From: Escherichia coli
GTDB lineage: Bacteria > Pseudomonadota > Gammaproteobacteria > Enterobacterales > Enterobacteriaceae
Strand: one strand, 5' to 3'
Assembly: GCF_046105845.1 (NCBI RefSeq)
Contig: NZ_CP151004.1
DNA: 64,000 nucleotides
Part shown: piece after piece, positions 5,164 to 63,392 of the stretch
Layout of the letters: the number at the start of each line of letters is the position of its first letter
How positions within the stretch are numbered: the stretch's first letter is position 1
Notes under the pieces: generated by a model
Told to the model about the DNA's origin: nothing
Seen by the model: the letters and a program-made list of their open reading frames with translations, nothing else
Database searches by the model: none
Position numbers and translations under genes: made by a program

Positions 5164-6456
5164 TTATACGGTTTTATTGCGCTTCATGACCATTGCCACA
5201 ATAAGGCTGAGTAAGATTGCACCAATAATCCATATCAACGCACGGCTGCCCTGGGACCACAGGCTGTAGATAAAGCCAACGATCACCAACAACATCACCA
5301 ACGTACCTACGATAAGAATCGGCAACGAGGCGTGAATATCATGACGCAGGCGGATCGCCACCACAAACACCGCCAGATAGCAAATCAAAAAGGTGGCGCT
5401 GGCAACGCTGGCGAGTGAGCCTAAATTTAGTGCCGCCGTCATCAGCATAATCAACACCACGACAATGATGTTGCCCCAGGTACTCTGCCGCCACAGGGAT
5501 TTATTCATTAGCTTCGGCAGTTCGCGTTCGCTGCCCATGTTGTCCATGATGTTAAACACGGCGAACAGGTTCGCGTTGATGGCTGAAGCCGTCGCCAGTA
5601 AAGCGCCGATGACGACGATCACATAACCCACATGCCCGAGCAGCGGAGAAGCAGCCTGCGCTACGGCGGTATCGGCATATTTTTCTAACTCTAATGCCGA
5701 TACATCGCTAAGCAAAACCAGCGCCAGCGAGATATAAAGCAATGTGGTAACGCCAATCGCCACCAGAAACGCCCGTGGCATAATGATCTGCGGATCTTTC
5801 ACTTTATCCGCCGCGTTCGCCATCATGCCAAAGCCCGCATAGGCAAGGAAGGTTATCCCGATACAGGAGAAGAACGCACCGGAGCTGGGGGGCGCAGAGA
5901 CGGAAATATGCGCCGGTTGCAGCGACCAGACACCGGCAATAATCAGCAATAACAGGATCATCATTTTAATGCCGACGAGGATCACTTCCAGCCGCCCTAC
6001 CGCATGGTTGCTTAAGGAGTTGAAAAGCGTCATCACCGCAATGATCCCCAACGCGTAGAGCAATATAAGGTGCTCCTCCTGACTGCCTTCATGCAAAAAC
6101 TGCACGGCATAAGCGCCAAAAGCACGGGCGACCATGGCGATGCTCACCGCCAGCGTCAACAGGTACAATAACGAGAGTGCCAGCGAAAAGACGCCGTTGC
6201 CTAATCCGCGACGAAAGAAGTCGATAATACCGCCATTGCTGGGATAGCTCGCCCCCAGGCGCGCATAGGCATAACCGGAAAACATCGCCACAATACCGCC
6301 AAAAGCAAAGGCGACCCAGGTCGAGGCTTCCATTAGCAACGCAGCCTGCCCCAGCAGCGCGAAGATCCCCGCCCCCACCATTGCCCCAATACCGATGGAA
6401 ACGACGTTCCATAGACCGAGGGGTTTGTTATCGTTATTACCTTCCGTGTTCATCAT
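5164..6456 (-). CDS. ybaT: APC-family amino acid transporter YbaT
   Basis: 430-aa polytopic membrane protein; matches recalled YbaT and is directly downstream of glsA. Confidence 0.9.
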   Translation of the reverse strand: MMNTEGNNDNKPLGLWNVVSIGIGAMVGAGIFALLGQAALLMEASTWVAFAFGGIVAMFSGYAYARLGASYPSNGGIIDFFRRGLGNGVFSLALSLLYLLTLAVSIAMVARAFGAYAVQFLHEGSQEEHLILLYALGIIAVMTLFNSLSNHAVGRLEVILVGIKMMILLLLIIAGVWSLQPAHISVSAPPSSGAFFSCIGITFLAYAGFGMMANAADKVKDPQIIMPRAFLVAIGVTTLLYISLALVLLSDVSALELEKYADTAVAQAASPLLGHVGYVIVVIGALLATASAINANLFAVFNIMDNMGSERELPKLMNKSLWRQSTWGNIIVVVLIMLMTAALNLGSLASVASATFLICYLAVFVVAIRLRHDIHASLPILIVGTLVMLLVIVGFIYSLWSQGSRALIWIIGAILLSLIVAMVMKRNKTV

Positions 6457-33415: not shown

Positions 33416-34063
33416 TTATTCGGTAATGGCAGGGTTACGAAGCGTGGGACACAGGAGATACATCTCCAGTAAGATGGCGACGTAATCGCGGGCTTCTTTT
33501 TTAAGATCAAAAGATTGCGGGGCAAAGAGCCAGTTTTCCATCAGGCCGGAAATATAGCCGCGCATAATAATTGCTGCCCGACGCGTCATTAAATCCGCAG
33601 GCAACATTTTCGCTTCAATACAATGTTTTAACGTTTGTTCTATACGGTCATAACTTTCCAGACAGAGATTACGTTGTGCCTGTTGCACAACAGCCATTTC
33701 TCCGACAAATTCGCATTTGTGGAATATAATCTCCATCAATAATCGACGCCGTTCTTCTGTCACCGTGGATTCAAGAACATGAATTAATATCTCTCTTAAT
33801 ACTGAGAGTGGATCGCCAGGGAATTTTGCCTGATACTCAAGCTCTAGTTCACCAATATTGGATTCTGACAGTTCCCAGATCTCACTGAACAAATCCGACT
33901 TGTCTTTAAAATGCCAGTAGATTGCACCGCGCGTAACGCCAGCTGCTTTTGCAATCTCGCCCAGCGAGGTGGATGATACCCCCTGCTGTGAGAAAAGACG
34001 TAGAGCCACATCGAGGATGTGTTGGCGCGTTTCTTGCGCTTCTTGTTTGGTTTTTCGTGCCAT
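33416..34063 (-). CDS. acrR: TetR-family repressor of acrAB
   Basis: 215-aa ORF, divergent from acrA. Confidence 0.96.
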
Positions 34064-45571: not shown

Positions 45572-46858
45572 TTACGCGTTATAGGCATTTTCGCCGTGGC
45601 TGTTGACGTCCAACCCTTCTCGCTCCTGTTCTTCCGGCACACGCAGGCCAACCGTCAGATCCGCCAGTTTGTAGCCAATAAATGCCACCACACCGGACCA
45701 GACGATCGTAATGGCGATGCTTTCCAGCTGTACCAGCAACTGATGGCCCATCGTCACACCTTCAGCTAAGCCCACGCCACCCAGCGAACTGGCGGCAAAA
45801 ATCCCGGTCATGATACAGCCGACAATGCCACAAACGCCGTGCACACCGAAGACATCGCAGGGATCATCCACCCGCAGCAAGCGTTTGAGCATGGTAACGC
45901 CCCACAAGCCCGCCAGACCAGCTACCACGCCGATAATCAACGCGCCGCCAACCCCAATGTAGCCACAGGCTGGCGTCACGCCGACCAGACCGGCAATCGC
46001 GCCTGAACACGCTCCCAGCAGTGAAGGCTTACCACGCAGCGCCCATTCACCGAAGATCCAGCCAAGAATTGCCGCCGCCGTTGCGACCACAGTATTCACA
46101 AATGCCAGTGCTGCGATTTCATTCGCCGTGCCCGCTGACCCGGCGTTAAAGCCAAACCAACCGATATAGAGAATGGCAGTCCCGGTGAAGACCATCGGCA
46201 GGTTGTGCGGTTTAAACGCCTCTTTGCCGAAGCCCACGCGTTTGCCTATCAGATATGCGCCCACCAGACCGGCGATTGCGGCGTTAATGTGCACCACCGT
46301 GCCACCCGCGAAATCCAGCGCACCGTGAGAAGCCAGCAAACCACCGCCCCACACCATATGCGCAATCGGAATGTAGGAGAGCGTCAGCCATACCACCACG
46401 AAAATCAACACAGCTGAGAAGCGGATTCGTTCCGCCAGCGCCCCAACTATCAAGCCTACGGTAATGCAGGCAAACGATCCCTGAAACGCTACGTGAATAT
46501 ACTGATAAATGCTGCCCATCACCGCCGTCAGTTCGATGTTTTTCAGCATCAACCAGTTAATATTGCCGAAGAAGTTGTTTCCCTCACCAAACGCCAGCGA
46601 GTAACCGTAAACCACCCAGAGAATACAGACCAGTGCAAACGTCACCGTCACCTGCGTCAGCATCGACAGCACGTTTTTGCCGCGAATCAACCCACCGTAA
46701 AACAGGGCAATCCCCGGAATAGTCATAAACAGCACCAGCGCAGTACAGATCATCATAAACGCATTGTCGGCTTTATCGGCCACCGCAGGTGCAGCCATTA
46801 CCAGTCCCGGCAGCATCGCCAGTGAAGCAAGCCCAGTTTTTATCGTCGCTATCTTCAT
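45572..46858 (-). CDS. amtB: Ammonium transporter AmtB
   Basis: 428-aa ORF with signal peptide and 11 TM segments. Confidence 0.97.
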   Translation of the reverse strand: MKIATIKTGLASLAMLPGLVMAAPAVADKADNAFMMICTALVLFMTIPGIALFYGGLIRGKNVLSMLTQVTVTFALVCILWVVYGYSLAFGEGNNFFGNINWLMLKNIELTAVMGSIYQYIHVAFQGSFACITVGLIVGALAERIRFSAVLIFVVVWLTLSYIPIAHMVWGGGLLASHGALDFAGGTVVHINAAIAGLVGAYLIGKRVGFGKEAFKPHNLPMVFTGTAILYIGWFGFNAGSAGTANEIAALAFVNTVVATAAAILGWIFGEWALRGKPSLLGACSGAIAGLVGVTPACGYIGVGGALIIGVVAGLAGLWGVTMLKRLLRVDDPCDVFGVHGVCGIVGCIMTGIFAASSLGGVGLAEGVTMGHQLLVQLESIAITIVWSGVVAFIGYKLADLTVGLRVPEEQEREGLDVNSHGENAYNA

Positions 46859-46887
46859 TTTTCGTTCCTGTTGCTGTGTGCCAGAGA

Positions 46888-47226
46888 TTACAGCGCCGCT
46901 TCGTCGGCTTCGCCGGTACGAATACGAATGACGCGTTGCAATTCAGCGACAAAGATTTTGCCGTCGCCAATTTTTCCGGTGTAAGCCGCCTTACTGACGA
47001 TATCGATCACTTCATCGAGTTGGTCATCAGCAATCGCCACATCAATTTTTACTTTTGGCAGAAAGTTGACGCTGTATTCCGCTCCCCGGTACAGCTCGGC
47101 ATGCCCTTTCTGACGCCCGAAACCTTTCACTTCGGTGACGGTCAGGCCCTGAATACCAATGGAAGATAACGCTTCACGAACGTCTTCCAGCTTGAATGGT
47201 TTGATTATCACGGTCACCAGCTTCAT
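46888..47226 (-). CDS. glnK: PII nitrogen regulatory protein GlnK
   Basis: ORF trimmed to MKLVTVIIKPFKLEDVREAL... (112 aa); GGAGGGG RBS. Confidence 0.97.
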   Translation of the reverse strand: MKLVTVIIKPFKLEDVREALSSIGIQGLTVTEVKGFGRQKGHAELYRGAEYSVNFLPKVKIDVAIADDQLDEVIDIVSKAAYTGKIGDGKIFVAELQRVIRIRTGEADEAAL

Positions 47227-47278
47227 AGATCCCCTCCGGTCAGAATTCGGTAATGGTTCTGCTACACGAAGAAGGTAT

Positions 47279-47294
47279 TGCAAGCGGTGTGCCA
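47279..47294 (-). promoter_or_regulatory. sigma54 (-24/-12) promoter of glnK-amtB
   Basis: Minus strand reads TGGCAC-ACCGC-TTGCA, the sigma54 consensus, ~55 nt upstream of the glnK ATG; NtrC-like palindromes at ~47345-47395. Confidence 0.7.
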
Positions 47295-47406
47295 GAAATG
47301 AAAAACGAGAAGGAGAGCAGGAAGTTAAGAAGATTGAAAACAAAAACGCACTATGACAGTGCACAGTGCGTTACATTTTTGCACCAACGATGAAATATTG
47401 CGCTAT

Positions 47407-50953
<3,547 letters not shown>

Positions 50954-55485: not shown

Positions 55486-57909
<2,424 letters not shown>

Positions 57910-63147: not shown

Positions 63148-63392
63148 TTCCGTCTCCTGGATAAAATTGAAAAAACCTGCTGTACCGATTGTAACCTTAT
63201 GGACGGATTATCAGCTAGTCCCTGTGTTATGGGTACGGCATCACCATATTTCAAGCATAACAATCTTTTGTTGTTACGCTAACACCGAAAGAGGCTTTTC
63301 GCACGGTTCCATGCAAAATTCATGACAAAAAAAAGCCCACCACCTGGCGGTGACGGGCCTTTGTGCGAATTTAGCGCGTTATGCTGCGTAAA

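Follow-up and report, generated by a model that had tools for sequence, protein, structure and literature searches.

The σ54 promoter of glnK-amtB and its candidate NtrC enhancer in an Escherichia coli genome: helical phasing across species and a possible overlap with an mdlAB terminator

The spacer between mdlB and glnK on the minus strand of an Escherichia coli genome, which measures 180 bp from the mdlB stop codon to the glnK ATG at position 47226, is the promoter region of glnK in the 64,000-bp stretch of DNA analysed here (the window, to which all coordinates refer). We conclude with high confidence that this region is glnKp, the characterised σ54-dependent, NtrC-activated promoter of the E. 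coli glnK-amtB operon. The promoter is already known, and its confirmation brings nothing new about E. coli; glnK-amtB is a standard reporter of nitrogen starvation, and quantitative and synthetic biology employ glnKp as a 'simple' promoter that answers to NtrC only. What we add to this textbook system is modest: a helical phasing of the enhancer across species, with loop lengths that vary turn by turn, the place of E. coli in the shortest class of distances, and a possible overlap of enhancer and terminator in which the NtrC boxes and the mdlB terminator probably share the same DNA.

The gene glnK (46888-47226, minus strand), which codes for the PII-2 nitrogen regulator and opens the operon, was recognised from its open reading frame and the RefSeq annotation of identical DNA, and the second gene of the operon, amtB (45572-46858, minus strand), which codes for an ammonium transporter, from its open reading frame and the annotation of K-12. 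Open reading frame and annotation likewise identified the co-oriented upstream gene mdlB (47407-49188, minus strand), whose TGA stop codon occupies 47409-47407. The glnK Shine-Dalgarno (SD) sequence, GGAGGGG, lies at 47231-47237 (minus strand) and is conserved in the alignment described below. Of 5426 complete E. coli genomes, 5423 matched a 331-bp query covering the glnKp region, several of them at 100%; the annotation places mdlB on one side of it and glnK on the other. For comparison we fetched 80 glnK loci from other species; amtB follows glnK in 73 of 81 loci, and mdlB precedes it in the Enterobacterales loci L002-L013 and L015, the exception being an Orbaceae locus. Compared with glnKp of K-12 (b0450), the order mdlB-glnK-amtB is the same, and the σ54 core, both NtrC-type boxes, the hairpin stem, the SD sequence and the start codon are base-identical. 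Four substitutions separate the two, all between box B and the -24 element (TTTTTG for TTTTCA in the U-tract, CAATC for CAAAC, and CTCTCC for CTCTCT), and these are ordinary strain polymorphisms.

The σ54 (-24/-12) core, CTGGCACACCGCTTGCA, occupies positions 47279-47295 of the minus strand, with its GG at 47293-47292 and its GC at 47281-47280, and is the motif given for K-12 by ChIP-seq and gSELEX. The original prediction had read TGGCAC-N5-TTGCA on the minus strand at 47294-47279, and this is exactly what stands there (TGGCAC ACCGC TTGCA), with no mismatch. The pattern TGGCAC-N5-TTGCW has no other match in the window at up to one mismatch; shuffled sequence gave a mean of 2.36 matches. We then scanned with a position weight matrix, a check that had been suggested with the prediction, built from 131 ChIP-defined sites, that is the 135 motifs of Bonocora et al. 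2015 minus the glnK site and three K-12 sites expected in the window. The glnK 17-mer scored 14.4 bits, at the median of the validated sites on which the matrix was trained (median 14.3, range 6.7-20.3), and ranked third among the approximately 128,000 positions of the window. Because a random 64-kb sequence would yield about 1.9 sites scoring as well as this one, the significance of what is a typical σ54 site comes from its position, in sense orientation, intergenic and just before glnK. From the same rate, the chance of an equally good, correctly oriented site at most 100 nt upstream of one given gene is about 0.0015.

Several other sites emerged from the same scan. The best match in the window, CTGGCATTATTAATGCT (55685-55701, plus strand, 16.7 bits), lies antisense inside ybaV, a 123-aa open reading frame at 55516-55887 on the minus strand, and figures in the low-stringency σ54 ChIP-seq list of Bonocora et al. 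2015 as a known intragenic antisense site. The second, CTGGCGCTGGTTTTGCT (5711-5727, minus strand, 15.1 bits), appears from sequence similarity to be the intragenic σ54 site of K-12 ybaT (CTGGCACTGGTTTTGCT), an A in its -24 element being replaced by G. Ranks 4 and 5 went to the left-out ChIP-seq sites of clpP and acrR, both identical to K-12, and their recovery validates the scan; the motif upstream of clpP is TTGTCATGAATTTTGCA (63312-63328, minus strand) and the antisense motif of acrR is TTGGCGCGTTTCTTGCG (34022-34038, plus strand).

Transcription is predicted to start at 47268 (minus strand), 42 nt before the glnK ATG, by the rule of Bonocora et al. 2015 that places the start 19 bp downstream of the motif centre; the distance given there for glnK is also 42, in agreement with the arithmetic in the window. 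EcoCyc listed glnKp as 'predicted' at the time of that study. Every Enterobacterales locus carries a strong σ54 site 33-78 nt before the ATG. A promoter scan of 46800-47600 found no σ70-like promoter, and the IHF consensus (WATCAANNNNTTR) is absent from the spacer, its three matches in the window all lying elsewhere. Since no Rfam family matched 47150-47480 at E-values up to 1, no known leader or riboswitch is involved.

Published experiments address the identical K-12 sequence. Bonocora et al. 2015 reported a σ54 ChIP-seq peak, OS03, assigned to glnK at a distance of 42 with the motif CTGGCACACCGCTTGCA, whose centre lands on the σ54 site of the window once coordinates are converted. By gSELEX, peaks of both RpoN holoenzyme and NtrC fall between mdlB and glnK, with an identical σ54 17-mer, and a study of an rpoN deletion placed the glnK promoter at -68 to -51 relative to the ATG, matching 47294-47277. 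The σ54 motif could nevertheless be a non-productive binding site, like many intragenic ones, and glnK could owe its expression to a different promoter or to read-through out of mdlB; the number of equally good sites in random sequence would allow this, and Bonocora et al. stress that binding is not proof of promoter function. However, glnK tops the list of known σ54-dependent genes with an 18.8-fold drop in the rpoN deletion, and its mRNA is not readily detected upon deletion of glnG, while complementation restores it. The lack of a detectable σ70-like promoter in 46800-47600 also speaks against such a reading, and a terminator-like hairpin together with predicted masking of the SD sequence (see below) would oppose expression by read-through. 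Furthermore, the position of the site some 40 nt before the ATG is kept across Enterobacterales, and the cloned orthologous promoter of Salmonella Typhimurium glnK-amtB (STM0462), which was bound by σ54 in ChIP-chip, is σ54-dependent and strongly induced in a reporter, from 1.1 to 1778 Miller units upon nitrogen limitation. The Salmonella promoter occupies the orthologous position and differs in its core, TGGCACATCCTTTGCAAT, which has another spacer between the -24 and -12 elements. We consider a non-productive site extremely improbable, and retain CTGGCACACCGCTTGCA as the core of a working glnK promoter.

NtrC was likewise placed at this locus. Peak 1 of an NtrC ChIP-seq study lies at glnK-amtB, with 39.7-fold enrichment, and its interval (471741-471821, assumed to refer to U00096.2) has the promoter at its centre and lies 48-128 bp downstream from box B; ChIP-seq and gSELEX hence support the locus and not the individual boxes. 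NtrC-specific activity at glnKp spans an approximately 400-fold range between ammonium-rich and ammonium-starved cells, and the promoter has been described as exclusively dependent on NtrC phosphorylation, with its firing delayed until glnAp2 has amplified NtrC. Identity with K-12, ChIP-seq, gSELEX and expression in mutants thus bear out the predicted control of glnK-amtB by σ54 and NtrC under nitrogen limitation, and show that for this class of element the original prediction is reliable.

Upstream of the core lie two candidate NtrC sites, the promoter-proximal dyad box B (TGCACTGTCATAGTGCG, 47347-47363, minus strand), centred at -87, and box A (TGCAAAAATGTAACGCA, 47367-47383, minus strand), centred at -107, 20 bp from box B and beginning 23 nt beyond the mdlB stop codon. 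Conservation points to both, and helical phasing points to box B in addition. The palindrome that had been noted at ~47350-47367 is real, with coordinates 3-4 nt off (it spans 47363-47347), and the second element that had been noted is best registered at 47383-47367. A scan for NtrC motifs had been proposed as well, and taken alone this check does not support the boxes: against TGCACCA-N3-TGGTGCA, box B matches at 10 and box A at 9 of 14 positions, which is background level, and the window holds 36 sites with at least 10 of 14 matches where 31 were expected. Consensus counting was dropped as evidence, since it does not separate the glnK boxes from background. In motif score the boxes do not exceed chance, and the case for them rests on conservation and phasing. 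NtrC sites are thus not callable from motif score alone, and conservation and helical phasing are needed as well. Weak matches to the consensus would fit a promoter that fires only after NtrC amplification.

Conservation singles out both boxes. A TGCAC-N7-GTGCG dyad lies upstream of glnK in all Enterobacterales loci but the Orbaceae one (L014), and a dyad of the same type precedes glnK in Pseudomonas and other Proteobacteria that lack mdlB there. When 13 Enterobacterales were aligned, invariance ahead of the ribosome-binding site and start codon was limited to three blocks, TGGCA...TTGC of the σ54 core, the box B core GCAC-N7-GTGCG (GCAC...T-GTGCG) and TGCA...GC of box A. The adjacent two-dyad arrangement, with centres 20 bp apart, is conserved in six further Enterobacterales species; box A lies exactly 20 bp upstream of box B, with its core TGCA-N9-(C/G)GC conserved, in E. 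albertii, Citrobacter, Enterobacter BIGb0383, Yersinia and Rahnella. Both boxes are unchanged among the six E. coli variants compared, and the most divergent of these (95-98% identity over 128 bp) have no SNP in the boxes or in the GG/GC core. Most relatives have a best box closer to the consensus than the boxes of E. coli, with 13 of 14 matches in Superficieibacter and 12 of 14 in Enterobacter Bisph1 and Photorhabdus. The supplements of Brown 2014 and Shimada 2021 give primers and the σ54 motif for glnK, and no NtrC box sequence.

Additional dyads were seen further upstream. A third, weak one in the window (AGCGCCTGAATAGCGCA, 9 of 14, 47399-47415, minus strand) overlaps the mdlB stop codon, with its centre at -139, separated from box B by 52 bp or five turns; no such dyad was detected in E. 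albertii. The third box of Enterobacter and Yersinia is a different one, approximately 62 bp further upstream than box B, and in Enterobacter it comes immediately after the stop codon of mdlB.

Activation by NtrC over short loops depends on the face of the helix, reportedly on the basis of work on Klebsiella nifLA and of synthetic enhancer studies. A dyad is present at -87 to -151 in nearly all of the 54 glnK loci in which distances were compared, and at -183 in one. In Enterobacterales the best box stands 87, 97, 118, 130-131 or 140-142 bp from the predicted start, in steps of the helical turn. Over the 54 loci, treated as independent of phylogeny, the periodicity of the distances peaks at 10.5-10.7 bp (Rayleigh R 0.71-0.74, p ~1e-12), while periods of 9, 9.5 and 13 bp give no signal. 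When each distinct distance is counted once (n = 24), likewise uncorrected for phylogeny, the phasing retains a p of ~5e-5. Such phasing is the pattern expected of a working enhancer and not of a chance palindrome. At -87, the E. coli enhancer belongs to the shortest class of phased distances, and that of Yersinia and Enterobacter stands at -141; comparison of the sequences suggests that the enhancer may have moved, in the Escherichia lineage, to the shortest phased position seen.

The same DNA can be read as RNA, which the palindrome reading of the original prediction had left unconsidered: the NtrC-type dyad stands, and a terminator-like hairpin behind mdlB overlaps it. A terminator scan matched AACGCACTGTG-CACTGT-CATAGTGCGTT followed by a T-run at 47372-47335 (minus strand), a 38-nt terminator-like element whose hairpin arms AACGCACUGUG and CAUAGUGCGUU span 47372-47345 and which is probably the intrinsic terminator of mdlB. 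In RNA folding the hairpin has 11 bp and a free energy of -14.9 kcal/mol (z -2.9), is followed by UUUUUGUUUU and lies 34 nt after the mdlB stop codon; one strand of the stem consists of the right half of box A plus the 3-nt linker, the other of the right part of box B. In a comparison of ten sequences, 93.6% of the stem cells are paired. One compensatory pair was found (UA in five, CG in five), probably a single event; its 5′ partner belongs to the linker and thus to neither of the NtrC 17-mers. The covariation score is reached by 4 of 500 shuffles, most of the stem being constrained as NtrC half-sites as well. A T-run follows box B only in nine species, from Escherichia, Citrobacter, Superficieibacter, Klebsiella and Enterobacter, in which the box lies near the end of mdlB. 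Adams et al. 2021 list neither mdlB nor glnK in their Term-seq supplements, which low expression of mdlAB could explain. The U-tract at 47340-47344 (minus strand) reads TTTTTG here and in E. albertii, and TTTTCA in K-12 and in the other four variants of E. coli that were compared; folding of the 72-nt region is predicted at -20.1 kcal/mol here versus -23.0 in K-12.

These features raise the question of whether the palindromes at 47345-47383 might serve only as the mdlAB intrinsic terminator, their resemblance to NtrC sites being incidental and NtrC binding elsewhere or acting from solution. The stable hairpin with its U-tract 34 nt past the mdlB stop codon, the compensatory pair with a partner outside both 17-mers and the background-level NtrC consensus scores would all be accounted for in this way. 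However, Yersinia, Rahnella and Acerihabitans keep an invariant box B although they have no T-run after it and their mdlB ends 350-400 bp before the glnK start, and a terminator has no reason to keep a helically phased distance to the promoter. The like dyad before glnK in Pseudomonas and other Proteobacteria without mdlB, and the binding of NtrC to the locus in vivo and in vitro, argue in the same direction. We therefore hold a terminator-only role to be very unlikely. We conclude instead that box B is conserved as an NtrC site whatever its context, and in the E. coli clade the box has probably, with a likelihood only somewhat above even, been recruited as the mdlAB terminator as well. We give about an even chance to the full proposal that positions 47335-47383 (given as roughly 38 bp) are dual, acting as DNA as the tandem NtrC enhancer of glnK and as RNA as the mdlAB intrinsic terminator, and forming a three-layer barrier together with the anti-SD tracts described next. 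If this were true, the hairpin, the anti-SD tracts and the need for NtrC would make glnK expression strictly NtrC-dependent.

Two CT-rich tracts flank the σ54 core. The proximal one, CCTTCTTC (47268-47275, minus strand), covers -7 to +1 and is the predicted partner of the SD sequence in read-through RNA; the distal one, CTCTCCTTCTC (47307-47317, minus strand), lies upstream of the -24 element and differs from K-12 by a C in place of a T. According to Levy et al. 2017 (bioRxiv 086108), who described a distal and a proximal CT motif for glnKp, this promoter keeps a gene downstream of it from being translated in read-through transcripts, via CT-rich anti-SD tracts. The key tract, 7 nt long, CT-rich and centred at -4, relieved insulation when mutated, and the effect was independent of σ54. 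glnKp is the founding example of such insulator promoters, and both the CT tract near -4 and the distal tract are present here. The evidence of Levy et al. came from synthetic reporter constructs, whereas the masking of the SD sequence considered here is a folding prediction on the native mRNA. In that prediction, the SD sequence pairs with a probability of 0.99 in read-through RNA, mostly with CCUUCUUC, versus 0.55 in the σ54 transcript starting at 47268. Mutating both CT tracts in silico lowers SD pairing to 0.46, while mutating either one alone leaves it at 0.99. The CT tracts are hence predicted to mask the glnK ribosome site in read-through RNA only, which agrees with the insulator model of Levy et al.

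We propose the following sequence of events. RNA polymerase carrying σ54 would sit on CTGGCACACCGCTTGCA as a closed complex; upon nitrogen limitation, phosphorylated NtrC would assemble on the adjacent dyads near -87 and -107, loop across the short spacer while keeping to one face of the helix, and use ATP to open the promoter, and transcription would then start approximately 42 nt before the glnK ATG. When nitrogen is plentiful, two further layers could keep the operon silent: the RNA hairpin formed by the boxes and their linker, with its U-tract, would probably terminate mdlAB transcripts, and the CT tracts upstream of the start, present only in read-through RNA, would mask the glnK ribosome-binding site.

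With E. coli glnAp2, the model promoter for NtrC and σ54, glnKp shares the σ factor, the activator, tandem upstream dyads and activation by looping. The strong sites of glnAp2 lie at -108 and -140, 32 bp apart, overlap the σ70 promoter glnAp1 and are accompanied by low-affinity 'governor' sites. In contrast, glnKp has closer sites (-87 and -107), with centres separated by 20 bp and poor matches to the consensus, and the scan of 46800-47600 found no σ70 promoter. In the Pseudomonas glnK loci (L019-L044) the σ54 site precedes the ATG by approximately 150-230 nt, which implies a long 5′ UTR. Two NtrC-type boxes are present in most of them, at about -109 and -142; their spacing of approximately 33 bp is like that of glnAp2 and unlike the 20 bp of enteric glnK.
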